Shown here: one piece after another, positions 8,952 through 38,543 of the stretch
Numbering within the stretch: position 1 is the stretch's first letter
Layout: the number at the start of each line of letters is the position of its first letter
Virus record (IMG/VR): IMGVR_UViG_3300048762_000230
Span: 1 to 38,784 of that record
Strand: one strand, 5' to 3'
Length of the DNA stretch: 38,784 bases
From: a virus
Taxonomy: Duplodnaviria > Caudoviricetes
Notes under the pieces: model-generated
Database searches by the model: none
What the model was told of the DNA's origin: nothing
The model's input: the letters and a program-made list of their open reading frames with translations, nothing else
Translations under genes and position numbers: made by a program

Positions 8952-9938
8952 ATGGGAGAGCGCACTAATATCGTCTGGACGGATTCAACACACAACTTCT
9001 GGCGCGGTTGCACCAAGGTCAGCCCTGGCTGTGTCAACTGCTACGCCGAAACTCTTGTGACGACTCGGTTGGGAGGCGAGTGGGGCAAGGGCAAACCACG
9101 CGTTCGGTCTAAGAGCTTCGATGAGCCGCTCCGGTGGAACAAGAAGCCGAATGTCTGCGGCTGCTGTAACGAAGCGTTCAGCACCGAGGCTGGGTTCACC
9201 CACCGGCACGGCTCCATCATTCCTGCGTTCCACACCCGCCGCGTCTTCTCCCTCTCCCTCGGAGACTGGCTGGACGATGAAGTGCCGATCGAGTGGCTGG
9301 CCGATATGCTGGACGTGATCCGGCGATGCCCGAACCTGATCTTCCAGTTGCTCACCAAGAGGCCGGAGAATTTCACTGAACGCCTGACGGCCGTCATGAA
9401 GCACATCGAGAACTCTTCCGAGAATCACACATCACGTGGAGCCTCCTTGCATTTGTGGGCGCTTGATTGGGTTGTTGGCCAAAAGGTTCCATCGCACATC
9501 TGGATTGGTGCCAGCGTCGAGAATCAGCCCGAGGCTGACCGGCGCATTCCTGAACTACTCAAGATTCCCGCTGCGGTGCGGTTCCTGAGCTTCGAACCGT
9601 TGCTGGAGGACATTGATTTCAGCCGCTTCACCCCCTGGTTGCCAGCGCATCCTCAATACAACGCCAGCGAATGCGTTCAATGGGTCATCGTCGGCGGCGA
9701 GAGCGGACCGCACGCCCGGCCCTGCAATGCCGATTGGATCCGCAGCGTCGTCAGCCAGTGCAAAGACGCGAGCGTGCCGTGCTTCGTAAAGCAGCTTGGA
9801 GCCAAAATCACTGTGCCACACCCGCAATTTGGAGAGTGGGATAATTGGCACGTGAAAGTGAAAGACAGAAAAGGCGCTGACCCGTCCGAGTGGCCGCAGG
9901 ATCTGCAGGTGAGACAATTCCCGGAGGGGGCACAATGA
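8952..9938 (+). CDS. DUF5131 (Gp37/Gp68) family, radical-SAM-like protein
   Basis: WTDSTHNFWRGCTKVSPGCVNCYAE, FQLLTKRPE, RFLSFEPLL, WVIVGGESG, FVKQLG. Confidence 0.92.
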   Translation: MGERTNIVWTDSTHNFWRGCTKVSPGCVNCYAETLVTTRLGGEWGKGKPRVRSKSFDEPLRWNKKPNVCGCCNEAFSTEAGFTHRHGSIIPAFHTRRVFSLSLGDWLDDEVPIEWLADMLDVIRRCPNLIFQLLTKRPENFTERLTAVMKHIENSSENHTSRGASLHLWALDWVVGQKVPSHIWIGASVENQPEADRRIPELLKIPAAVRFLSFEPLLEDIDFSRFTPWLPAHPQYNASECVQWVIVGGESGPHARPCNADWIRSVVSQCKDASVPCFVKQLGAKITVPHPQFGEWDNWHVKVKDRKGADPSEWPQDLQVRQFPEGAQ

Positions 9939-16338: not shown

Positions 16339-18121
16339 AACACTGGTCAACAATACGAGGGATGCGGTCAGGATCTTGGTGGGAAAGCCTCCAATCCATC
16401 GCCAGAATTGGCTTGGACCCCGCTTTGAGCCGTCGAACATTTCCAGCTATGCCAAGGTCAGCACGATCCAGGAGGCGATCCGGGAGGCCGAAAATGGCGA
16501 TCCAACGACCCTTTTCCGATTCTACCGCGATGCCCTGCTTGGCGATGAACATATCCAGGGTGAACTGGGCAAGCGCAAGTTAGCCGTCCTGGGTGAGCCC
16601 CTGGTGATCCTGCCCAGGGACAAGGAAAACCGGGAGGACATCGCCGCGGCGGCCGCGTGCCTGCAGGCCGTCGAGGATTGCGAAAACTGGGGTGCCGGAC
16701 TTTCCGCATTACTCGGAGCCTCCCAATGGCCCGTGGCGATCGTGGAGAATATCTTCCAGCCGGCAAATGCCGCGCCGGTGCGGTTTTCTGTCGGCGAGGA
16801 AAAAGGCGAGCTGCGTCTCCAATACACACTCAAACGACTGGAGCCTGTCAACCCCATGCTCTTCTGTTACCGGCACGCCTACCTTGTCGGGGGCGTCGGC
16901 CTGGGGACCGCCTCGCCCATCCAGCAGGCCGGCTTGATGAAAGAGGCCCAGCAATCCACATGGAAAGTCGGCACCTCTCCGTGGTACATGATCAATCTGG
17001 ATGATTGGGAACCTTTCCTGCGCCTGTGGCCGATCGATGAAGCAGGCCGCATCATCTATGATGCAAGCAACGCGAGCAAACTTGATTCCACGCGGCACAT
17101 TGTCCATCGCGGCCATTTGATCACCGATCAGCGCGACAATTGGGGTGGCCCAATGCGCGCGATTTCGGCCTGGTGGCTCTTGCGCGGCCTTGGCCGTGAT
17201 TGGTTTGCCCGGTTCATGGAGCGTTACGGTTCGCCCTTCCCGGTCGGCAAGACCAATGTCGATGATCCGCAGGCTGTCGATTTCCTGCGCGAAGCATTCA
17301 ACCTGGCCACAAAGATCGGCGGCCTGGTGATCGGAGATGATGATTCAGTGGAGCTGCAGCAGGCGATGGTGCAGGGCGGGGCGGAGGGACATAAAATCTG
17401 GCACGACGTCTGCAACGACGCCATCAGCTTCCACATCACGGGCTATAAGAGTTCACAGAAGCCGGCGGGGCTGAACGCCGGTGAAGCGACCACGACGGAA
17501 AACATCCGGGAGGATATCCGCGTGTTTGATGAAAAGACGCTGGGCGAAACGCTCGTTAAACAGCTCTTCCGAAACTTCCAGAAGTTTAACGGGCTCACAG
17601 GTTCGATTCGAATTGTCTGGGGAGGCCTGAGCATCGATGACGCCGCGACTTTTGCCGCGCTCTTGAAGACAATGGGCGAGGCTGGACTGGAGCCTACGGA
17701 CGAATCGATGCCGGTCGTGGATGAAAAGACCGGGCTGCAATGGCAGCGCAAAGCGGTCCCCGCCCCACTCGATGACGATCCTGCGGCCGGCCCCAAGGGA
17801 CCGGATGAGGATGATGCGGAAACGCTCTCCACTCGGGCTGGCCTTGGCCGGCTCATTTGCTTCAGCGCCGGCGGAGGCCCACGGCGCCATGATCCCGTGG
17901 ACGGGATAGTTGCCAGGCGCAAGGAAGCTCTTGTCGCGGCATACAAGGGGGCGATGGCGCCCTTCCGCCAGGCGATCCTGAGCAGCAATTCCAAAGAGGA
18001 ATGCCTGGCCAAACTCCACGCCCTTTACTCTGACTGGTCACCGGAACGGTTGGCGTCTGAACTTGATGCCGCGCTGCAGATCTGCGCCGCCGCCGGAGCC
18101 GCGCGCGCCGTCGAAGGGTGA
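16325..18121 (+). CDS. Portal protein (DUF935, Mu gp29-like)
   Basis: AENGD...DEHIQGELGKRKLAV, DWFARFMERYGSPFPVGK. Confidence 0.92.
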   Translation: MSIVKTLVNNTRDAVRILVGKPPIHRQNWLGPRFEPSNISSYAKVSTIQEAIREAENGDPTTLFRFYRDALLGDEHIQGELGKRKLAVLGEPLVILPRDKENREDIAAAAACLQAVEDCENWGAGLSALLGASQWPVAIVENIFQPANAAPVRFSVGEEKGELRLQYTLKRLEPVNPMLFCYRHAYLVGGVGLGTASPIQQAGLMKEAQQSTWKVGTSPWYMINLDDWEPFLRLWPIDEAGRIIYDASNASKLDSTRHIVHRGHLITDQRDNWGGPMRAISAWWLLRGLGRDWFARFMERYGSPFPVGKTNVDDPQAVDFLREAFNLATKIGGLVIGDDDSVELQQAMVQGGAEGHKIWHDVCNDAISFHITGYKSSQKPAGLNAGEATTTENIREDIRVFDEKTLGETLVKQLFRNFQKFNGLTGSIRIVWGGLSIDDAATFAALLKTMGEAGLEPTDESMPVVDEKTGLQWQRKAVPAPLDDDPAAGPKGPDEDDAETLSTRAGLGRLICFSAGGGPRRHDPVDGIVARRKEALVAAYKGAMAPFRQAILSSNSKEECLAKLHALYSDWSPERLASELDAALQICAAAGAARAVEG

Positions 18122-19677
18122 AGCAAGTGGACCAGGACTTTACCCTTCAAGCCCCGCATGAGGAGGCTGCCGCGCTCATCCGCGGCAAGCCGGCGATAAC
18201 CCGCAGCGTATTTGACCAGCTCCTCCCGGAACTTCGCGCCAGGGCTTTTACGGTCACCGGCATTGAGGGAGCCAACACCCTGCAGCGCATTCGCGACGCC
18301 ATCGCCGGCATCGCGACGGGGCAGACCTGGGACGATGCCAAGAAGCAGATTGTCGAGGATCTGGACCCCTACCTTGGCGACGGCGCTCAGGTCCGGGCGG
18401 AGATGCTCTTGCGCACTCACGGCTTCCAGGCTTTCCAGGGCGCATTCTGGCGTTCGGCCCAGAAGGACCCGGACACGACGCATCTCCAATACCTGACGAT
18501 GGAGGATGATCGCGTGAGGGATTCACACGCGGCATTGGATGGGGTCGTGCTTCCCAAGGATGATCCCTTCTGGGCAAAGCACTTTCCGCCCTGGGAATGG
18601 GGCTGCCGGTGTTTAACGCGCTCGATGAACTCCGATCAGGTGGATGAAGAGCGCGCGGCCGACGCCGACAAGAATCCGGAAGACCACAACGTGATCGAAG
18701 GGGCAGTCCGCGACCAGCTCGAGCACGGAACCCTCATGCGCGAGGGGCGGCGTTTCGACGTCACAGCGCCCAGCGACGGGCCGGATGGCGCGGTCGCATT
18801 TCAATGGCACCCGGATAATTTACGGCTGCCCATCACTCAACTGCAGAGCCATTACGATCCGGGCATCTGGCTTCAATTCGAAGCCTGGGCCAAGAATCAG
18901 GAGATCGAGCCGGGCCGCACGATCTGGCAGTGGCTCAATGAGAAGCCTGTCAAATCAACCCGCAAACGCCGCACCGCTGCCAAGACGGAGGCGCCGGCGC
19001 CGGCGTTATCAAACGTTCCTGATGGGATACGGCAGCTTGCCGACCGATTCACGGCGGCAAAGTTCAGCAGGGAAGTGGTGGATCAAGTCCAAGCACTGCC
19101 TGCCGCGGTTGCGCCCTACATGGAAGATCTCTCCGTCCAGCCGTGGAGCGGGAGGGCACATTACGGTCCGACGGAACAGCGCGTTTATATGCGCAAGAAT
19201 CCGACCGATTGGTCCGGGACTCCAGACACGGCCGTCCACGAGATCGGCCATCATCTCCATTACAAGACCAATACGCTGACCTATACCCACACAGATCCAA
19301 GGTTCATTGAGGCGGCAGCCAGGGATGTGGTGGGATTCAAAAAGTGGGCGGAGCAGATGGCCGGGCCAAATTGGCAGCAAGAATTTTCTCCACGACGATC
19401 GACCTCATTAAAGCACATTTCCAGAGCGCTGGGCTATGGCGAATATTCCGAGGCGCTTCCACTGTCCGCCAGACGGCGCGTCATTCGATTTACGGATGCG
19501 ATCATGGGTATTTCCCGCGGGGAATATGGATTGGGGCATTCGCGTATGTATATGAGGCGCTATGGGTTCATGGAAGCCTTCACCCATGCATGGACGGCAA
19601 TCGTTGACAAAGACGCGGAATTTGCTAAGTTGTTTCCTGCGGTAACAGATCTGGTCCGCCAGATCCTGAAACTATGA
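18118..19677 (+). CDS. MuF (gp30) minor head protein with C-terminal HExxH metallopeptidase-like extension
   Basis: QYLTMEDDRVRDSHAALDG..DDPFW..HFPPWEWGCRC; linker; AVHEIGHHLH...MEAFTHAW. Confidence 0.9.
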   Translation: MKQVDQDFTLQAPHEEAAALIRGKPAITRSVFDQLLPELRARAFTVTGIEGANTLQRIRDAIAGIATGQTWDDAKKQIVEDLDPYLGDGAQVRAEMLLRTHGFQAFQGAFWRSAQKDPDTTHLQYLTMEDDRVRDSHAALDGVVLPKDDPFWAKHFPPWEWGCRCLTRSMNSDQVDEERAADADKNPEDHNVIEGAVRDQLEHGTLMREGRRFDVTAPSDGPDGAVAFQWHPDNLRLPITQLQSHYDPGIWLQFEAWAKNQEIEPGRTIWQWLNEKPVKSTRKRRTAAKTEAPAPALSNVPDGIRQLADRFTAAKFSREVVDQVQALPAAVAPYMEDLSVQPWSGRAHYGPTEQRVYMRKNPTDWSGTPDTAVHEIGHHLHYKTNTLTYTHTDPRFIEAAARDVVGFKKWAEQMAGPNWQQEFSPRRSTSLKHISRALGYGEYSEALPLSARRRVIRFTDAIMGISRGEYGLGHSRMYMRRYGFMEAFTHAWTAIVDKDAEFAKLFPAVTDLVRQILKL

Positions 19678-22612: not shown

Positions 22613-22616
22613 CCTT

Positions 22617-22661
22617 TTCGCCCAGGCCTCTCCCGTGAAAGCGGGAGAGGCAATGGGCGAA
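22617..22661 (+). other. Long GC-rich hairpin with GAAA tetraloop after capsid gene
   Basis: TTCGCCCA/TGGGCGAA outer stem, GCCTCTCCCG/CGGGAGAGGC inner stem; no U-tract. Confidence 0.65.
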
Positions 22662-22693
22662 GAGTCAACCGCAACATCAACCAAATACCAACT

Positions 22694-23095
22694 TTGAAAG
22701 ACGCACAATTTACGGTTTCTTTGGCGCTCCCCAACACGGGCGCGAACAACAACACCGCCAGCCTGAACTTCAATCCTGAGCTGGCCGGGTTCCTGACCAA
22801 TCAATGGCGCTTGGGTTATTGGGCCGTGGCCGTGCCGGCATTGGCCGATCATACCAACACCTCCGTCAACAACACGCTGACGCTGCAGGACAGCGCGGAT
22901 GGCACCAACTTCGCCAACACGTCGCCTCTCGTTCAAATCCAGGTTCCCGGCGTGGCGTCCACCGGCAGCGCAGCGGCTACCGTCAAGGTCCCCAATACGC
23001 CCGGCATCCGCCAGTATGTGCGGTTTAACCAGAACATTCCGGCCAATGGCGGCAATGGAAACAACGCCGTCGTGACGTACTCGCTGAGCGTTTAA
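22694..23095 (+). CDS. Capsid decoration/cement protein (Bbp16-like)
   Basis: Beta-rich 133 aa after capsid; TLQDSADGTNF, RQYVRFN; TTG start with A/C-rich leader. Confidence 0.65.
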   Translation: MKDAQFTVSLALPNTGANNNTASLNFNPELAGFLTNQWRLGYWAVAVPALADHTNTSVNNTLTLQDSADGTNFANTSPLVQIQVPGVASTGSAAATVKVPNTPGIRQYVRFNQNIPANGGNGNNAVVTYSLSV

Positions 23096-23183: not shown

Positions 23184-23780
23184 ATGAAAGATCGCATCTT
23201 CACTTGCCCCCTGGATTGCCTGGCCGGCGTCGGCGAGGTCTTGGGCGGTCAATACAACGTTGCGATCCAAGTGGCCGGCGCGCCGCGCGTGCTGGATATC
23301 GGCGCCAATGTGGGCGCCTTCTCCCTTTACGCCTTGGGGCTGTGGCCACAGGCCCAGATCATCGCCTACGAGCCCCACCCGGCCATCTTCCGGTACCTGA
23401 GACAAAACACGGCGCAAATGGCCGTGACTTGCGTCGAGGCGGCCGTCGGGGATTCCAGCTTTGCCAGGCTTCGGCCTGGCTCGGACACCCGCCTTTGTTC
23501 CAGCCAATACGACCTCGGACGCCAGGGCAACGCCTCCATCGACATCAAGGTGATCCGGCCCGAGGACCTCCCGCCGGCCGATATCATCAAGATCGATACG
23601 GAGGGCGCCGAAGGTTACATCGTCAGCCATCTCCAATCCCACCCGCGTTTGCTGCTGGTTGAATATCACACCGAAGTGACGCGGATGCAGGTCGAGTGCG
23701 GCCTGCTCTCCAAAATGAAATTGATTTCCAGCCGCGTCGGCAGACCCGGCTACGGCTTCCTGGCTTTCATCGCCTCATGA
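23184..23780 (+). CDS. FkbM-family SAM-dependent methyltransferase
   Basis: VLDIGANVG, IAYEP, IIKIDTEGAE, VEYH. Confidence 0.92.
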   Translation: MKDRIFTCPLDCLAGVGEVLGGQYNVAIQVAGAPRVLDIGANVGAFSLYALGLWPQAQIIAYEPHPAIFRYLRQNTAQMAVTCVEAAVGDSSFARLRPGSDTRLCSSQYDLGRQGNASIDIKVIRPEDLPPADIIKIDTEGAEGYIVSHLQSHPRLLLVEYHTEVTRMQVECGLLSKMKLISSRVGRPGYGFLAFIAS

Positions 23781-24466
23781 ACGAACGCAAGGTCTATATC
23801 GCCGTCGCGGCGCATTTCGGCGCGCAGGACATGCTCTTTGTCCAGGCGCTGTGTCAACTGCTGGTCGCGCGGCCCTGCCCGATGCAGATCGGCTGGAATT
23901 GTGACCCGTGCATTGACCGGGCGCGGAACATCCTGGTCGCAAACTTCCTTGAGAGCGATTGCACTCACATCCTCTTCATCGACGGCGATATCGGGTTCAG
24001 CCCCGGCGACGTGACGCGGATCATCTCGCACGATGAGCCTGTGGTTGGCGGCATGTATCCCCTGAAGCGGGATGGCAAACAGATCGAATGGTGCGGCAAC
24101 GGGATCCTGGGCCGCGTGGCCGCGCTCCGCGATGACGGCCTCCAGGAGGTCCGCTATATTGGCACCGGTTTCATGTGCGTCGCGCGCGCGGCATTCGAGA
24201 AGATCATCGCGACGGATGGCGCAGCGATCCAATATGAGGCGGATAACGAGCCGCACCGCCGAGAATGGGCTTTCTTCCGGGAAGGCGTCTGCAAGACCGA
24301 TGACGCCAGAATCCGGTTCCTGACTGAGGATTGGTTTTTCTGCCAGCGCTGGCTCGATCTGGGCGGCCGGGTCTTTGGTGACACGCGTGTGCTGTTGCGC
24401 CACGCCGGGCGGGCTGTCTGGCCCCTGCCGCTCCAGGAAAATAATCCATTCAACCCTCCCGCCTGA
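23777..24466 (+). CDS. GT-A fold glycosyltransferase (GT2-like)
   Basis: IDRARN, HILFIDGDIGF (DxD), VVGGMYP, IGTGFM, TEDWFFC. Confidence 0.88.
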   Translation: MNERKVYIAVAAHFGAQDMLFVQALCQLLVARPCPMQIGWNCDPCIDRARNILVANFLESDCTHILFIDGDIGFSPGDVTRIISHDEPVVGGMYPLKRDGKQIEWCGNGILGRVAALRDDGLQEVRYIGTGFMCVARAAFEKIIATDGAAIQYEADNEPHRREWAFFREGVCKTDDARIRFLTEDWFFCQRWLDLGGRVFGDTRVLLRHAGRAVWPLPLQENNPFNPPA

Positions 24467-24879
24467 TGCCTTACGTCACCCAATCACAGGTCACCGCCAA
24501 GATCCCGGCGCCCGTTCTGAACGACGCGCTGGACGACGACGGCGACGGGCAGGCCGATCCGGGGTCCCTGGATAACATCATCGCCCTGGCCAGCCAGGAG
24601 GTTGACAGCTACCTGATGGGCCTCTTTAACACGCCCTTCCAGGATCCGGCCCCGGCGAAGGTTCAATCCGCAGCATTCAGTTTTGTATGCGAGATGATCT
24701 ACCAGCGCCGCGCCGTGCCGGAGGAAAAAAACCCGTTCACAGCGCCCGCGAAATTCTGGCGCGAGCATCTGCAAAAGGTCGGCAATCGGGAGCTGCCATT
24801 TGACGCCCAGGTCCAGAGGGCCTTCTGGCCCGGAGCAAAGATCACGACCGGAGTCAGCAACGACGTTCAGAGCACATGA
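24466..24879 (+). CDS. Head-tail adaptor (Mu gp36 / DUF1320-like)
   Basis: MPYVTQ...ASQEVDSYL...IYQRR. Confidence 0.85.
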   Translation: MPYVTQSQVTAKIPAPVLNDALDDDGDGQADPGSLDNIIALASQEVDSYLMGLFNTPFQDPAPAKVQSAAFSFVCEMIYQRRAVPEEKNPFTAPAKFWREHLQKVGNRELPFDAQVQRAFWPGAKITTGVSNDVQST

Positions 24880-25382
24880 CCATCGCCCAGCAATTAAAAG
24901 CGACTGCGAAAGCGCTCAAAGCCTGGGCGTCAGGCAATAATGGCGTCGTCTCGATCGCCGGGGATCTTGAGGGCATGTTGACCGTTTTGCGCGAAGTTCC
25001 GGGCGCGGTCCGCGTCGTCGTGATGTTCCATCGCGAGGAGAAGAGGGGTGATTACGAAGAGCGCGGCGCGGTGGACCGCTATTTCTGGGTGGCGCTCGCG
25101 CGCGGGAAGGGATTGAAGATCGAGACGGGCGCCAACCTGGTGGAAGGCACCGCCGGCGGCGCGCCGCTCTTCGATCTCGTGGATGAAGCGCGCCAGGTGA
25201 TCCGCGGCTTGAGCTTTGATTCCGACACGACGGAGGTCACGCCCGATTACAAGGGGGCCGACCCGCTCACCGTGAACGGATTGACCCTGACCGATGTGCA
25301 ACGGTTGGAGTTCAGCATCGGCACGCAATTGCCGGCCGTTGATCAAAGCAATCCAACTGGAGGCAATACCGATGAAGGTTAG
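24876..25382 (+). CDS. Neck/tail terminator (Mu gp37-like)
   Basis: Synteny after gp36; LFDLVDEARQVIRGL. Confidence 0.6.
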   Translation: MTIAQQLKATAKALKAWASGNNGVVSIAGDLEGMLTVLREVPGAVRVVVMFHREEKRGDYEERGAVDRYFWVALARGKGLKIETGANLVEGTAGGAPLFDLVDEARQVIRGLSFDSDTTEVTPDYKGADPLTVNGLTLTDVQRLEFSIGTQLPAVDQSNPTGGNTDEG

Positions 25383-27069
25383 ACTCGCTTTCATTTGGAT
25401 TTTTGTCCTGACCTGCTCCTGGAGCGCGACAGCGGCCGATGTGTTTTTCCCGTTGCACGATTTCCGGTCGCTGCCGCCCACCAATCGGAATGCGCTGATC
25501 ACCCCCGTAGGGCTCTTGCCTGGAACCGCTTTCCTCACGGTCCAGGATAAATGGATGTACCAGACCGGAACGAACGGGTCATTCTGGGTGAGCAACATGG
25601 TCCCCGGCAGTTATGTGCTCACAGTTATGGGACCTCCGACGACCAGCTTCTTTCCTTTTTTCGTGGACCCCACGAACCAGACGCAGAACGCCGCAGCCAA
25701 CGTCATCACGTCAACGAACCTGGCCTGGCCGCCCAACGGCTTTGCATGGACAGCGCAGGCTTCGGATGCGCGCTACGGAGCCGGATCCACCGGGCTCCTA
25801 TCGTTGTCGTGGGGTGGTTACGTGGCTCTTTCGAGCAACCTGGTTCAAACCGTCACTCTTGTGACCAACGTCGCCTACCTCGCCACGGGCGCCGGTTCCT
25901 CTTTTGCAAATGGACTCTTCCTTCCAGCCGCTTCGAATGGCTCTGTTTATACCAACACCGCGGCCACGACGCTTTCAAGCAACCCTTATGAGCAATGGTA
26001 TTTCGCCCCACCGAGCGGAGTCTGGGCCTATTCATCCCGCTCCGCATCTTCGACGCCCCCTACCGGCGCGGGACAATTTACGGTTGATATGGGGGTCTCG
26101 CCCGCGCCCGTTCTCACGATCTCAAACATCGTCTCCTCCGTCACTAACACGATCTATTTACCCCTCCTCCAAATCGTCTCTCCAGCCGGCCTGGGCGCCA
26201 GCGCGTTCTACGGCCAATTGATCTTCCCGCCAGGCGCTCAATTCGGCTATGTTCTCACCAGTGACACGAACGGGGCCGGCTCCTGGCAGGCGCCAGCCGC
26301 AGGGGTGGGAGGCGCGAACCTCTTCGCGCTGCAAACGAACTTCCTCACGCGCAATGTGGTCTTTGTTGATGCGGCCAATGGGGCGGACACCAACCCTGGC
26401 ACAGCCAACCTTCCATGGGCGACGATAGGCCACGCCCAGCAGAACACGCCAGCCGGCCTTACCATTGCAGTCGCTCCGGGGTCTTACGCGGACATTTTCA
26501 CGAACACAGCCCTCAACGTTTGGCTGGGTGACGGGGCCACGATCAACGTCTCCTACAGTTCAGCGGGCACGAACAGCATCGAGGGGTCTGGCAACGTGAT
26601 ACTCAGTGCCAGCGGAAGCTGGTCGGGCGGCACTTCCGCTACTGTTTACTGCAGGAACCTGACATGCGATGGCGCAAATCAAATCGGGGGGACAATGGAG
26701 GTCCACTGCGTTAACGCCACGAACATAATATTATTGGGCGCGAACAGCTCGACTCTGATCATTCACTGCGAGCATTTCTCGGGCAGCATGGCGACCGGAA
26801 CCGGGCTGGCCAGCCTCAAACTGTATGCCACGGAGGACGCCACCATGATCGCGCAATGGATCCTTGGGTCGAGCAGCGTCGTCTCTACCCCGTTGCTGTT
26901 TACTGGCGGCAACACCTTCTCGACCGGACCGGGTTTTACTTATGCTGTGGGTGGCACCTACTGCTCAGGCGTGGTCCCACTGTTCCCCGCCCACATGATG
27001 TTTTTAGGGGACCCCTACTTTGATCACGCCCCGACAGCGCCCAGCGCAGTGGGCACGATCCAGTATTGA
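25372..27069 (+). CDS. Signal-peptide protein with fibre-like motif and C-terminal beta-helix (DUF1565/pectin-lyase-like)
   Basis: GGAGG SD; MKVRLAFIWIFVLTCSWSATAA; GYVLTSDTNGAGSWQAP; VFVDAANGADTNPGTANLPWATIGHA. Confidence 0.7.
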   Translation: MKVRLAFIWIFVLTCSWSATAADVFFPLHDFRSLPPTNRNALITPVGLLPGTAFLTVQDKWMYQTGTNGSFWVSNMVPGSYVLTVMGPPTTSFFPFFVDPTNQTQNAAANVITSTNLAWPPNGFAWTAQASDARYGAGSTGLLSLSWGGYVALSSNLVQTVTLVTNVAYLATGAGSSFANGLFLPAASNGSVYTNTAATTLSSNPYEQWYFAPPSGVWAYSSRSASSTPPTGAGQFTVDMGVSPAPVLTISNIVSSVTNTIYLPLLQIVSPAGLGASAFYGQLIFPPGAQFGYVLTSDTNGAGSWQAPAAGVGGANLFALQTNFLTRNVVFVDAANGADTNPGTANLPWATIGHAQQNTPAGLTIAVAPGSYADIFTNTALNVWLGDGATINVSYSSAGTNSIEGSGNVILSASGSWSGGTSATVYCRNLTCDGANQIGGTMEVHCVNATNIILLGANSSTLIIHCEHFSGSMATGTGLASLKLYATEDATMIAQWILGSSSVVSTPLLFTGGNTFSTGPGFTYAVGGTYCSGVVPLFPAHMMFLGDPYFDHAPTAPSAVGTIQY

Positions 27070-27072
27070 TTT

Positions 27073-28245
27073 ATGCCACTGCTGACAACTCTTGCGGGGG
27101 CGCTGATCGCAGCGAATGTGGCGTTCTCGACCAATATCCAAACGCTTTCGACCAGCACCAACCTGGACGAGATTGCGGCACTGACCAGTAGTTCTGTGAA
27201 CACCGTCACGAACGCGGTTCACTCGCCGGAGATGTACACCACCCTCAGCCAGGGCGGCTGGGGGTATCAAACAATTGTGACGCCGCCTGCGGCCAGAATG
27301 GGATTAAACTACACAGTGTTGCCTGGGTCGCTGGCGTTTCACGCGTTGACCAACTCGATTGTTCACACGAACGGTTTTGGAGCTTATGCAGCCGCCGAGA
27401 GCCTTTTTACGCCGACGATCCCGTTGAACTCTGTGATCGCCAACAGCAATGCGATGTCTATCTGGACCAACATTTCGTCTCACCTGACCGGAACGTTGAC
27501 CCGAAACAGCAACTGCTGGTTCTCTGGCTATCCAGAGCTGAGCGCGGTGGTTGTGGCGGACGATGCGGATCGCACCAGTACGACCAACAATGGCGGCTTT
27601 GTCGAGTTCAGGATTGGAGCAACAGCCATTTCGCCAAGACACATCCTTTGCGCCGCTCATGCCTCTTATTCGGCTGGTACGGTCATGGTCTTTGTTGACA
27701 CGAACAACGTGGCCTTTCAGCGCACCGTGGTGTCGGAGCAGGACCCCGTGGATAGCAGTTCTGACATCACCTGCTGTCTGCTGGATGCCGATCTGCCTGC
27801 GTCCATCACGCCGATGAAGGTGTTGCCGACAAACTATCTGGCGTGGCTGCCAACGCTGACCAATCACTGCGAAGTCCCTTTGCTCGTCATCAACCAGCAG
27901 CTCATGGCGCTGCCCAAATCATGGATTCCTTTCGCCGGCATCGAGGTGTCGCTGGGCCAAGACACCTATTGGGTGAGCACAAACTGGTTTGACACCTACA
28001 CGACGGCCGCCGGAGGGATCACTGGTGGGGACAGCGGTCATCCGATCATGGTCGCGATCGGCACGAACCTGGTCCTGGTGAGCCATTTCACAACCGCAGG
28101 TACGGGCTCCTCCATCGCTTATTTCGAGCCGCAGATCAATGCCGCGATGCATTCACTTTCAGTCGCTGCCGGTCTTGAATCAAACTATCAGCTTGCGCCG
28201 ATCGACCTGTCGGCGTGGCCGAACACCACTACGGGATTACATTAA
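27073..28245 (+). CDS. Trypsin-like serine protease, probably exported
   Basis: AISPRHILCAAH (His), SDITCCLL (Asp), GGDSGHP (Ser); hydrophobic N-terminus. Confidence 0.8.
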   Translation: MPLLTTLAGALIAANVAFSTNIQTLSTSTNLDEIAALTSSSVNTVTNAVHSPEMYTTLSQGGWGYQTIVTPPAARMGLNYTVLPGSLAFHALTNSIVHTNGFGAYAAAESLFTPTIPLNSVIANSNAMSIWTNISSHLTGTLTRNSNCWFSGYPELSAVVVADDADRTSTTNNGGFVEFRIGATAISPRHILCAAHASYSAGTVMVFVDTNNVAFQRTVVSEQDPVDSSSDITCCLLDADLPASITPMKVLPTNYLAWLPTLTNHCEVPLLVINQQLMALPKSWIPFAGIEVSLGQDTYWVSTNWFDTYTTAAGGITGGDSGHPIMVAIGTNLVLVSHFTTAGTGSSIAYFEPQINAAMHSLSVAAGLESNYQLAPIDLSAWPNTTTGLH

Positions 28246-28247
28246 CT

Positions 28248-28811
28248 ATGAGAACTTACCTCACCATCGCACTTTCCTGTTTGGCCCTATTATTCCTCGA
28301 CGCGACCGCTCTGGGAGGCCAGTCGGTCGGCCTGTGCTGGAATCCGTACCAGGACCAAACCGTCACCGGGTTCAAGGTTTATGAGGGCATGGTCAGCAGG
28401 GGCGCAACCGGATCGCCGCCCTTCGCCGGCTACACGAACGTCATCACCGTCCTGGGTGCCTCCCAGACCAACGCGGTGTTCGCGAACCTGCCTGTTGGCG
28501 CGATCTGTTTCTTTTCGGCGACGGCGTTCATCACCGTGGGCGGAACGAACCTCGAAAGTTACTTCAGCGGGGAAGTCTCCTACGGCCCGATCCGCCCATC
28601 TCCGCCCTCGATCCAGACCCCATACCTGGCGCTGTCGTGGGACGGCCCTTATACCATTTGGGGCAGCTCGAATCTCGTGGCCTGGTCGCCACTTCTGACG
28701 ACGCCATTCAACACCGCGAGTCTGCCGATAGTCCTCGGACAACAATTCTTCCGGGTGTCCAACTCGCAGAGCAATCTCCTGGTGATCGTGAAACAGAGCC
28801 CGGCATCATGA
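28248..28811 (+). CDS. Exported fibronectin type III-like protein
   Basis: Signal peptide; SVGLCWNP...VTGFKVY...FFSATA...ESYFSGEV; C-terminal SSNLVAW...QQFFRV. Confidence 0.75.
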   Translation: MRTYLTIALSCLALLFLDATALGGQSVGLCWNPYQDQTVTGFKVYEGMVSRGATGSPPFAGYTNVITVLGASQTNAVFANLPVGAICFFSATAFITVGGTNLESYFSGEVSYGPIRPSPPSIQTPYLALSWDGPYTIWGSSNLVAWSPLLTTPFNTASLPIVLGQQFFRVSNSQSNLLVIVKQSPAS

Positions 28812-36400: not shown

Positions 36401-37371
36401 ACGGCACTTCGCTGGGGGGTTTTCCGGCCCTGGAATGGTGCGCGCTCAACGATGTGCGCGCCGCCGTTGAAGCCCTCGGTTTTCACTTTTCATACCAGGA
36501 AATCGTTATCCCGCTCGCCCTTGAGTATTGGGAGGATCCCTGCAGCATCAGCATGCGGACGATCCCCGGAAACCTGAATCAGAGCCAGGTATATAACACA
36601 TCCCTGGGCGGTTGCTGCAACAGCCCGGCCGTCTTCTTGAGTGAATTGATCGCCTACTGCACTGGACCCCAGAGCAGCGTGTCTGACAGCGCGGCGGGTT
36701 TCAACTCCGCGCTGTTGAAGTTTGTGCAGACCACGGACAGTTCAAAAGCCCTTTGGAAAACAATTTTGGCGGGTGCGCCGCCCATTACCGTGTTCTCGGC
36801 GCAGGTGAGAAACCTGCATTCACCAATTTATACGTGGGACGCAACTGGTGTGCAGTTCTTCACATGGGAAAAACCGGTGGCGCTCGATTTATTCGTCCTC
36901 ACCGTCGGAACGGTGCCGTCTGTCCTCTCTCAGATGGCGGAGTATGGGATTGAGTTTCAGCCAACCGTCAGAAATGCCTCAGATTTTCTGCAAATGACTG
37001 AGACTGACGGCTCGATCTTTGACCAGTTGAACTGCTTCGCCATCAACATTGTCGCCTCATCAGGCCTGACTGTTTTCTCCAGCCCGGTATTGCTGGTGGG
37101 ATCTGGATTTTGGAGCATTCAGACCGATTACTGGGGCCTGGGCACCGTGGAGCGTTATTCAGAGCCGGCCGCCGGGTTCAGCCCCTGGATCTGGGTGTCA
37201 GCGCCCGCAAACAAGATAATCCCCCTCGCACCCGGTCTGAACATTATTTCTCCTGGGGCTCAAAATGTGAAATATTCCGCCTGTTTTAACCTCACTCAAG
37301 CACTCATATCGCTTGGCGATTCTGCCTCATCAAGTGACAGCGCCAGCGGTTCAACCTCAGCATCGTCATGA
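33466..37371 (+). CDS. Large tail/receptor-binding protein (about 1300 aa)
   Basis: Size and position; KGTWNAATNTP..VGDYYQVSIAGT..IGDYAYYNGTAW fibre-type module; no signal peptide. Confidence 0.65.
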   Translation: MAALIPYLKGGESASASYMNALFGALDAKLTAILSGKSFFLAQELAMPVKFCGKIFCFTSGTPLYAGRAPAVVSTAYNHAPFTAAAAAFASSVSPWDETNKIAIIPEVASSYYTSAGVPQELGVRGYPISTFFDWSLEAHHYMHQGSNDTAPVPYYIQEAQIVSSPLYLCPIHPPEKHLRFALAEIVIEGPTSVTLPANYDKYSCFRVHNLNSVAVTVNFGGAYTLTLQPFQTACVRRDSPTANYRRSAFNYFFQFEGGDPRFYWFMPTICDVGNYNEALMATGSQVSNSMQANNLSNPACLHDWVQYFLRDMSTWGGVDNAAVDRWYAGWQQDPSIQCDIHPLYPAAFGDPGNPATLLGDLLHHQGKIVIKRTATVPDPITGIKAETWDSVQFNGYTTIVADFAAKLLTVAPNSAGDLVITNADTNNDVLLIPIGTNMFKSFTNAGSGVTGTEVHPSSIALAANTPSSNFTIENAIFENPNYQNLTATPAQQIFQPALATATNQRTWTQVTTYPVSGPLVGTPVVVSGPDSQTLDWTHARATAKTLHGIHQITVAQILQLDWWGDPAAGNQQSTYVSISKRSLQLTPEGLVLLYIETDSTIQPVSGGTGAQLNNWAAAKIGLPICKQIKFRSHGWGYVSAENGSLDTGFLSPQFGRYLCGTNFTGEILAPAGADFSLPTLSVIQNSIQVLTKIRTGDLSHVQGGRFWQTNAPGGDSLDTFVEGSDTPIATPAPIAMALLAEMYNAMARAVNAITSGCALSWRTLRWNITTGGVTKTVSLSGAAGDWGLLPLANRTRLQGKGTWNAATNTPDITSGPTVGDYYQVSIAGTFAGKSFSIGDYAYYNGTAWLQLLQAGPQDGSKAYTLPMAAFTVFNPGSDYAALCTLLSIPVNSVLPGGLDTAGDSQPFSYFVSKQIVPAMIETTFTWNGGAFACSSVDSYGNFTATGTFTSSWSATLLSAADTKSRWPTYPGAVGVTLDGTSLGGFPALEWCALNDVRAAVEALGFHFSYQEIVIPLALEYWEDPCSISMRTIPGNLNQSQVYNTSLGGCCNSPAVFLSELIAYCTGPQSSVSDSAAGFNSALLKFVQTTDSSKALWKTILAGAPPITVFSAQVRNLHSPIYTWDATGVQFFTWEKPVALDLFVLTVGTVPSVLSQMAEYGIEFQPTVRNASDFLQMTETDGSIFDQLNCFAINIVASSGLTVFSSPVLLVGSGFWSIQTDYWGLGTVERYSEPAAGFSPWIWVSAPANKIIPLAPGLNIISPGAQNVKYSACFNLTQALISLGDSASSSDSASGSTSASS

Positions 37372-38543
37372 AGATCAAGATCATTGGACTCAGCCTTTTG
37401 CTTGCCTCTGCCGCCGGCGCGCAGATCACAAATATGAACAACGGGGCCTATCAAGGCGACCCAACCGCCGGCAGCGTCTGGTCCGCCCTGCAGACGGGGA
37501 ACGCTGATTTCGACTGGATAGGAGCCCAGCTCGCCGCCCTGCCTGATGCCCAGACCAATTCCGTGCTCAACAGTTTCAAGAATCCGCTTTGGTCCACCAA
37601 CAGCATCAGCTTCGCCACAACGAACTGGGTCATCTTGCCTGTCTCGGTCACGAACTACGCCGGCACGACATTCTCTTACGCCCAAGGAGGCGGCCTGACG
37701 TTCAATTATTCAACGGACGGCGGGGCGTCCTGGTGGCCGGACTCCGGCACTCTCATCACCAACATCCCGGTGATGCTCGCTTTCACGAACGTCAACCAGG
37801 GTGCCTTTGCGCCATCCATCCCTGCCATCCTCACCAATCTGACGATTTACGTCCAGACCAGGCCGGATCTGTTCGCCAAGAGCAATTCTGTCATCGGGCA
37901 GGATTTCATGGTTGGAACCCCATTGGGGCCGAATGACGCCACGCCCAAGAGTTATGTGGACGGGCTGATGCAGGCCACGCCCTGGTGGAGCGCCCCACAA
38001 TCGGTCCAACTGAACGGATACCCGCTGAATTTCAATCCAATCTGGCAGGTAAGCAGCGCCACGAACAGTGCCTCAATCACGTGGAATTACATTGGAACTC
38101 CAGCCGTCAGCATTTCCGGGCCTGCGGCGACCTACGCCAGTGTAAGCAACATTCTCGTCAAGACCAATTGGGTGTTTTTGCTGGTGAGAACCAACAGCGT
38201 CACCAGTCCAATCATTCCCCAATACACCGCTTCGCTTTTGCAACAGAGTTGGCTGACTGTTCCGGCCTACACCAGCACGTACCCATTTTTCACGAACGGG
38301 CTTTACACCGTGACGTTCCCGATACCCAATCCGAACGCGGCATTCATCAGGTTGGCCTTCTTTCCTCCTGGGGCTGCCGTATTGAGTTCCTTCGGGTCGT
38401 TGTGGCAAACTCTATCGACCGTCACCAACTCGACGGACTCAACGGCTGGGTGGGGGGCTGGGGTGATGAAGTGGGACACGAACTATATTTACGTGTCGGT
38501 GGGAACGAATCAGTGGAAGCGGGCAGCCCTGAGCACCTGGTGA
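37368..38543 (+). CDS. Tail-fibre-like protein with Sec signal peptide
   Basis: MKIKIIGLSLLLASAAGA|Q; NDATPKSYVD; C-terminal WDTNYIYVSVGTNQWKRAALSTW. Confidence 0.7.
   Translation: MKIKIIGLSLLLASAAGAQITNMNNGAYQGDPTAGSVWSALQTGNADFDWIGAQLAALPDAQTNSVLNSFKNPLWSTNSISFATTNWVILPVSVTNYAGTTFSYAQGGGLTFNYSTDGGASWWPDSGTLITNIPVMLAFTNVNQGAFAPSIPAILTNLTIYVQTRPDLFAKSNSVIGQDFMVGTPLGPNDATPKSYVDGLMQATPWWSAPQSVQLNGYPLNFNPIWQVSSATNSASITWNYIGTPAVSISGPAATYASVSNILVKTNWVFLLVRTNSVTSPIIPQYTASLLQQSWLTVPAYTSTYPFFTNGLYTVTFPIPNPNAAFIRLAFFPPGAAVLSSFGSLWQTLSTVTNSTDSTAGWGAGVMKWDTNYIYVSVGTNQWKRAALSTW

Follow-up and report, generated by a model that had tools for sequence, protein, structure and literature searches.

The glycosyltransferase (GT) encoded behind the cement (decoration) gene of the phage described here is best explained as an enzyme that adds sugars, in the cytoplasm, to many asparagines of the cement protein, most of them outside sequons, with the FkbM-family methyltransferase (MT) encoded beside it methylating the sugar; we give this reading a probability of about 0.6, and glycosylation of a virion protein of one kind or another is very probable. 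The observation that carries it is an excess of Asn that is confined to the cement protein and depends on the presence of the GT, seen more weakly in a second lineage. What we infer from there is that the genes are co-expressed late, that the cement protein is the acceptor, that the linkage is through nitrogen and that the sugar carries a methyl cap.

Genomic setting of the cassette

The window, by which we mean the whole stretch of 38,784 nucleotides that was analysed, is a linear viral contig of 38.8 kb with a CheckV completeness of 66%, and all labelled runs that contain this stretch are peat metagenomes. Its layout is Mu-like, with a transposase, transposition ATPase, Gam, Mu-type small terminase, portal, gp30, protease and gp36, and the region of interest has the order major capsid, cement, FkbM MT, GT and gp36 (Table 1). 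The first-pass annotation had placed an FkbM methyltransferase and a GT-A enzyme between the decoration gene and gp36, coupled by overlapping codons, and ORF coordinates, protein families and predicted fold confirm this, the overlaps ATGA (23777-23780, between MT and GT) and TGATG (24464-24468, between GT and gp36) being read directly in the sequence.

Table 1. Features of the capsid to gp36 region of the window
Feature	Position	Strand	Evidence
Major capsid protein, epsilon15 gp7 / BPP-1 type, 328 aa	21626..22612	+	NF045672 107.5 bits > 75; PF20911
Long stem-loop between capsid and cement genes, without U tail	22614..22666	+	-43.4 kcal/mol, z -7.8; 0/200 shuffles fold as well
Putative Bbp16-like jelly-roll cement (decoration) protein, 133 aa, TTG start	22694..23095	+	fold, Asn content
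Structured spacer, end adjoins MT start codon	23098..23182	+	-47.7 kcal/mol, z -3.7; 2/200 shuffles fold as well
FkbM-family SAM-dependent methyltransferase, 198 aa, ATG start, TGA stop, predicted glycan O-methyl cap	23184..23780	+	TIGR01444, PF05050
GT-A glycosyltransferase, STIV A197-like group, 229 aa, ATG start, TGA stop; DGD69-71, SED/TED 183-185, H209	23777..24466	+	
Mu gp36-like head-tail adaptor, start overlaps GT stop	24466..24879	+	PF07030 36.7 > 24.7; phrog_195

The spacer ahead of the MT may dampen translation, and together with the stem-loop behind the capsid gene it may help to fix the ratio of capsid to cement to enzyme protein. A frameshift introduced during assembly was rejected as the source of the split between MT and GT, as the junction is crossed without indel by contigs from two other peat DNA runs; the presence of P0001 on 5 contigs was also counted against it. 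Contigs from RNA libraries of two peat runs span parts of the capsid, cement, MT and GT genes, where DNA may be present, and we do not claim expression from them. Among genome assemblies, the nearest homologues of the GT come mostly from Verrucomicrobiota records (L083-L086, L088, L102 and L112; L082, in the top row, carries the label Bifidobacteriaceae), and the host is therefore likely to be a bacterium of this phylum.

Acquisition of the pair as a horizontally transferred moron was ruled out by a GC content that is the same as that of the flanks and by scans for promoters and terminators, the promoter scan over 5.2 kb giving 1 promoter-like site against 1.3 expected. The same scans bear on the idea that the pair serves lysogenic conversion by modifying or methyl-capping the LPS or another surface glycan of the host, an idea that agrees with a temperate phage (it encodes a transposase) and with the occurrence of FkbM enzymes in O-antigen loci, the MT having a weak match to RfbT. 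However, no sigma-70-like promoter was found ahead of the MT and no terminator isolates the pair; GC does not set it apart, the GT overlaps gp36 translationally, no membrane or flippase partner is found, and the position behind the cement gene is fixed in many phages. As a separate promoter or terminator is absent, conversion of the host surface is very unlikely.

Elsewhere in the window four tail-region genes on the plus strand (25372-27069, 27073-28245, 28248-28811 and 37368-38543) encode Thr-Asn-rich proteins with signal peptides apparent by eye and with 13, 12, 3 and 15 TN dipeptides respectively. Relatives have similar secreted-looking genes whether or not they carry the GT (L001, L002, L004, L249, L256 and L262), sometimes between the capsid and cement genes. 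The Mu gp30-like protein (18118-19677, plus strand) has 519 aa against ~270-290 in close relatives, and its extra C-terminal part contains an HEIGH segment which we take to resemble a metallopeptidase motif. A DUF5131 gene (225 bits) lies in the early region at 8952-9938 on the plus strand.

The glycosyltransferase

The GT belongs with PHROG 1574 (E 5e-20), whose profile picks up 1,591 representative proteins at E 1e-30. Its AlphaFold2 model (pLDDT 94.8) has GT-A enzymes as its best matches among solved structures, and neither a signal peptide nor a membrane helix is seen in the model. Residues D69-x-D71, E184-D185 and H209 are invariant across 51 homologues, and we take them to be the DxD metal motif, the xED catalytic motif and the C-terminal His of such enzymes. 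The top solved match found by Foldseek is A197 of the archaeal virus STIV (E 1.4e-8), followed by human LH3, mimivirus R699, COLGALT1 and Mnn9, and a search of the PDB with a profile of the 51 homologues returned A197 at E 0.0094, the best of 3 hits. Single-sequence searches of PDB sequences with the GT and with the MT returned nothing, the link to A197 having come from the profile and fold searches only. GT and A197 share the segments FLE..LF.D.D, VVGG.Y.LK and G.GF..I.RE.FE. Judged from profile and model, the GT is a remote homologue of A197, which does not imply the same substrate. Membership of the Anp1/Mnn9 family (PF03452) was considered and rejected, the match of 20.3 bits over 45 residues falling below the curated cut-off of 28.8 and Mnn9 ranking 16 in the structural search.

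Predicted viral structures that match the GT include many proteins of uncultured phages, a glycosyltransferase of Sulfolobus filamentous virus 1 and an uncharacterised PBCV-1 protein, Q98454, of 227 aa (E 1.9e-11, TM 0.67). A tblastn search over 50,697 phage records at E 1e-3 matched 63 of them, with mycobacteriophages absent from the 63, a result that is compatible with remote homology. Close homologues (53-54%) that have no cement gene beside them were seen at L085:5734-6411 and L183:2692-3714, where they stand at the end of small elements; these encode proteins that are rich in Thr-Asn and have what look like signal peptides. There are also distant chromosomal homologues (28-33%) in Acetobacteraceae (L090, L097 and L099), presumably near flagellar genes from their look, and in Sphingopyxis (loci such as L123 and L132), presumably near glycine-cleavage genes.

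Distant homologues (27-31%) are encoded by the T4-like Caulobacter phage Cr30 (L361) and Stenotrophomonas phage DLP_6 (L364), in both of which the gene sits between those for peptide deformylase and the sliding clamp, that is among replication genes. The proposal of Asn glycosylation on a cement protein is for this reason restricted to the cement-linked subgroup; both phages are cultured and usable as test systems for the wider GT family.

The T4-like location is one of the points in favour of a role in DNA hypermodification, by which a modified base would receive a sugar from the GT and that sugar a methyl group from the FkbM enzyme, in place of mom. The lack of a mom gene, already remarked on in the first-pass annotation, is upheld by scans for the Mom family that found no match in 45 ORFs (PHROGs and Pfam) or in 23 further window ORFs (Pfam), in a record that is 66% complete and so possibly lacks genes. 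Phage GT-A enzymes that hypermodify DNA (TET/5mYOX- or ThyS-linked, JGT-like) share the fold and the general active-site motifs R...DxD...ED, and in the available text of the same source their pathways usually cluster with TET, ThyS-like or C5-methyltransferase enzymes (bioRxiv 10.1101/2023.12.21.572611; this and the other sources cited by number are represented by excerpts). Unlike these, the GT of the window is acidic and linked to a cement gene, and no base-hydroxylating partner was found: genes for TET/JBP, thymidylate-synthase-like and C5-methyltransferase enzymes were not found in this 66% complete record, the TET search being a weak one that was silent in all control genomes. Furthermore, all 71 cement-linked GT domains have a pI < 8.5 (median 5.8), and DNA modification leaves both the Asn shift and the co-inheritance with the cement gene unexplained. 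With partner genes not found, an acidic GT and an unexplained Asn shift, DNA modification is very unlikely, in agreement with the lower rank that it had been given at first pass.

The methyltransferase

The MT matches the FkbM model TIGR01444 with 64.8 bits (cut-off 37.7) and PF05050 with 27.9 bits (cut-off 22.7). A precomputed PF05050 domain is present in 44 of 57 longer GT homologues, so that fusion of MT and GT is common, and the predicted substrate of the MT, to judge from this fusion, is a sugar that it would O-methylate. The nearest fused homologue is 66% identical in its GT part and 37% in its MT part, which fits an exchange of the MT. On such comparisons the GT is the core and constant part of the cassette, and the MT is an optional and exchangeable one.

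Synteny of the cassette in related phages

The synteny survey that had been proposed as a check was run on 242 GT loci, reduced to 175 by dereplication and to 135 by requiring 2.5 kb or more of upstream sequence, the genes being labelled by profiles iterated from the window proteins. Among dereplicated homologues of at least 40% identity with at least 2.5 kb upstream the GT is kept behind a cement gene in 52 of 56, and only 2 of 54 homologues below 35% identity match the cement profile upstream. Some less similar homologues (30-38%) lie after decoration-like genes that stand behind capsids of other types (L157, L068, L076 and L062). The cassette had been considered in the context of Mu, which has no such genes at this place; it is real but not specific to Mu-like phages, as 32 of the 62 cement-linked loci have Mu-type markers and 30 have none of the markers tested. 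From the survey it is a module of the cement gene that is found behind several capsid types and is not peculiar to Mu.

Across the same 62 loci FkbM is fused to the GT in 29, adjacent in 7 and absent in 26 (36/62 with an MT). The methylated glycan proposed at first pass remains a prediction, with a methyl cap that would be optional.

A domain scan that covered 45 of 89 candidate ORFs identified variants of the slot with an added GT2 domain (L025, L233 and L207), with a Methyltransf_24 enzyme replacing or beside FkbM (L086 and L010) and with a doubled FkbM (L026 and L204), which from their domains look like glycan tailoring. In a phage without the A197-like GT, a GT2-family enzyme (L315:6626-7708) follows a cement gene whose product is rich in Thr and poor in Asn (2.6%), which hints that a different GT pairs with a different acceptor residue.

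The cement protein and its asparagines

The model of the 133-aa cement gene product is an all-beta jelly roll. E-values were weak in all rows of the fold search, in which the BPP-1 cement protein (3j4u_H; E 2.2e-3, rank 10) has the highest TM-score, 0.65, among the matches listed; in the ESM Atlas the Bbp16 cluster was given at 0.95, with a recognition score below the bar of the tool, and a Pfam scan of the protein gave no Bbp16 match. Given the jelly-roll matches and a position after a BPP-1-type (NF045672) capsid gene, we take it to be a probable Bbp16-type cement (decoration) protein. It has no signal peptide, and its 19 Asn make up 14.3% of its residues, the highest share of the 38 window proteins counted. 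Two cement-family genes per phage were seen at L192:7616-9836 and L277:8026-8929, those of L192 being both Asn-rich and flanking an MT-GT fusion.

Cement-bearing phages without the GT were obtained by a reverse search with the capsid protein (107 loci, 60 after dereplication), for which narrower capsid alignments were used, the whole-family capsid and cement alignments being too diverged. A locus was called GT-negative if its downstream sequence ran to 2.8 kb or more and a GT match was lacking within 4.5 kb; GT-positive loci were mostly found by GT-based searching. In the 82 pooled cement proteins, dereplicated at 80%, Asn is 11.5% with the GT (n=65) against 3.0% without (n=17; p 5.6e-10), a median of 14 Asn per protein against 3. 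There are exceptions on both sides, namely three GT-positive phages with Asn-poor cement proteins (L304 3.4%, L009 4.3% and L172 4.5%) and a GT-negative one with a higher value (L370, 7%). Ser is lower with the GT (6.6 vs 9.3), as are Asp and Glu, and Thr shows no difference. Presence of the MT leaves cement Asn unchanged (11.4 vs 11.7), which rules out an MT acting on Asn as the cause, and the excess is also present in phages where the GT is alone in the slot.

The other virion proteins do not follow. Capsid Asn shows no significant shift with the GT (4.9 vs 4.3), nor does the Asn of portal, protease or tail tube, and locus GC is alike with and without the GT, so that a genome-wide or GC-driven bias is ruled out. 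In the three GT-negative phages that have gp36 and gp37 (low-GC genomes) the Asn of these two proteins is higher. The major capsid protein of the window has 4.3% Asn and is not the predicted main acceptor.

Sequon-directed N-glycosylation was considered and found to be weakly indicated, given that N-X-S/T sequons hold 171 of 874 cement Asn against 144 +/- 10 in shuffled sequences, a slight excess that leaves ~80% of the Asn outside. Around these Asn, Ala at -1 is enriched 2.0-fold and Asn at +/-3 is enriched 2.3-fold. Asn columns that are conserved among the cement proteins correspond to N14, N20, N59, N72, N75, N118 and N121 of the window protein and to positions close by.

In a second lineage, of phages with a protease-capsid fusion, cement Asn is 7.5% with the GT (n=7) and 4.1% without (n=13; p 0.001), the capsid giving p 0.08; these 20 dereplicated loci remain from 88, of which 40 had a cement match and 30 passed the filters, and the 7 positives all come from GT-selected loci, the first seed having drawn attention by being Asn-rich.

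Co-inheritance of cement gene and glycosyltransferase

Across 62 phages the distances between GTs follow those between cement proteins, even with Asn columns ignored (Spearman 0.65, partial 0.64), and not those between capsid proteins (Spearman 0.19, partial -0.15). A quick capsid tree of 79 rows implies 11 changes of the GT label, 6 of them forced, and Asn-richness of the cement protein tracks the GT in 6/6 independent pairs (p 0.03), which capsid Asn does not. On a cement tree with Asn masked the label changes 6 times, 2 of them forced, and the data do not reject a topology with one GT-negative clade (p-AU 0.60).

From these comparisons cement gene and GT are a module that moves as one behind different capsids, and the contrasts are not fully independent of each other. 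As the two genes travel together the six pairs of the capsid tree may stem from few origins, and the Asn excess could have been inherited with the module. Fully independent, repeated gain of Asn is unsupported, one GT-negative clade on the cement tree being compatible with the data; co-inheritance is good evidence for a functional pair and weaker evidence for repeated gain.

Linkage and start of the proposed glycan

HMW1C/NGT, which are demonstrated cytoplasmic Asn-glycosyltransferases, have a GT-B fold, and LH3, COLGALT1 and Mnn9, the solved relatives of the GT with a known reaction, transfer to hydroxyls, as an O-linked glycan would require. Such a glycan could be carried by Ser/Thr of the cement protein, or by the capsid or tail tube, the Asn excess then being a side trait of the module that might, for example, hold the glycan or the enzyme by hydrogen bonds. 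The cement protein is 11% Thr, the tail tube of the window is 10% Asn, cement and GT are co-inherited, and the capsid glycosylation of mycobacteriophage Che8 is described, in the excerpted text, as oxygen-linked (PMC13445384). With the GT present, however, Asn alone rises, Ser being lower and Thr no higher, and the composition of capsid and tail tube is independent of the GT. Aromatic residues, which a face that binds sugar should contain, show no enrichment in the cement protein with the GT (413/7597 vs 99/1901). As only Asn rises, N-linkage is favoured, and an O-linked glycan is unlikely. The earlier proposal that the decoration protein carries a virion glycan, with Asn, Thr and Ser all in view, is therefore supported by the comparative data as regards the acceptor and narrowed to Asn as regards the residue.

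It is also conceivable that the GT merely extends or caps a glycan which a host enzyme has started on cement Asn or on another virion protein. GT-A enzymes commonly extend glycans, as does domain 1 of PBCV-1 A064R in the excerpts of PMC9614988, and the Thr-Asn-rich tail-region proteins with apparent signal peptides hint at a host glycosylation system. Against this, the cement protein lacks a signal peptide and has its Asn excess only with this GT, even where the GT is the sole enzyme of the slot, and the GT-negative phages L249, L256 and L262 have Thr-Asn-rich secreted-looking proteins but an Asn-poor cement protein. Extension of a host-made glycan is quite unlikely on these grounds, and direct transfer to cement Asn by the GT is the reading that we prefer.

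Comparison with known systems

As in the virion glycosylation of mycobacteriophages, the GT (and MT) genes of the window lie in the virion operon. Freeman et al. 2023 reportedly described the glycosylation of the Che8 virion. In Corndog, a cluster O mycobacteriophage, an O-methyltransferase (gp35) and three GTs (gp36-38) are encoded between portal and protease (PMC4351075), and these enzymes were later reported to modify capsid and tail tube (PMC11600133, PMC11256854); the window, in contrast, has one GT, which follows a cement gene, and an Asn signal in the cement protein. One mycobacteriophage tail protein may carry a HexNAc on N/S/T, which is described as dependent on a host enzyme (PMC13445384). 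By the tblastn homology test the GT falls outside the set of mycobacteriophage enzymes; judged from genes alone, it would work like known virion-glycosylation systems. Capsid cassettes of MT and GT are already known from Corndog, and what is new is the GT-linked Asn signal of the cement protein and the predicted homology to A197. A search of the open-access literature turned up no paper on this cassette, on a phage cement protein glycosylated at Asn, or on such a linkage made by an enzyme that a phage encodes.

STIV A197, the best structural and PDB sequence-profile match, is likewise a minimal stand-alone viral GT-A. It is essential, the STIV capsid protein is glycosylated and A197 is proposed to glycosylate it in the cytoplasm, donor and acceptor being given as not determined in the excerpts of these papers (PMC10551542, PMC4187194). 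Unlike the GT it comes from an archaeal virus with a double-jelly-roll capsid, the two are 18% identical, and no MT partner is described for it in the same excerpts.

The chlorovirus PBCV-1 provides a precedent for the chemistry, in that its capsid protein Vp54 carries methylated N-glycans on Asn outside N-X-S/T that are virus-encoded and made in the cytoplasm, and A064R, a GT-GT-methyltransferase fusion that we compare together with A061L, extends and caps the glycan, the O-methyl caps being added by a GT-fused MT (PMC9614988). Unlike the phage it is a eukaryotic giant virus with many GTs and a nine-sugar glycan on four sites. Eight putative GTs of PBCV-1 are listed by gene name in the excerpts (PMC9614988), and how the first glucose gets added is described as an open question (PMC9614988, PMC7826918). 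A064R is not among the structural matches listed for the GT; PBCV-1 Q98454 was.

Proposed role and significance

In the reading that we prefer the GT would be made late together with the head proteins and, in the cytoplasm, would move sugar from a nucleotide-sugar of the host onto Asn of the cement protein; where an MT is present it would O-methylate the sugar, and extra GT2 domains would extend it. The finished head would then bear a dense coat of methylated glycan, possible benefits of which are a shield against proteases or grazers, solubility or stability in acidic peat, and hiding from host sensors.

Within the excerpted literature examined, phage-encoded virion glycosylation has been demonstrated for mycobacteriophages only, with an O-link. 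The chemistry predicted here differs in being Asn-linked, independent of a sequon and carried out by a stand-alone GT-A of 229 aa. For a large group of uncultured phages, comparative genomics of the module names both an enzyme and a candidate acceptor and, as both proteins are small and soluble, the proposal is testable by co-expression that needs neither virus nor host. If true, a compact tool for cytoplasmic glyco-engineering may follow.

A wider reading, which we hold only tentatively, is that A197-like GT-A enzymes are widespread viral cytoplasmic N-glycosyltransferases that prime capsid glycans on Asn, independent of a sequon, in viruses of all three domains of life. Their acceptors would be the phage cement protein (~14 Asn sites), the STIV capsid protein and possibly, through Q98454, a chlorovirus protein, Q98454 being a possible candidate for putting the first glucose on Vp54. 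If the proposal for the cement protein is true it would give a function to PHROG 1574, and it would bear on the substrate of STIV A197 and on the first step of chlorovirus glycosylation.
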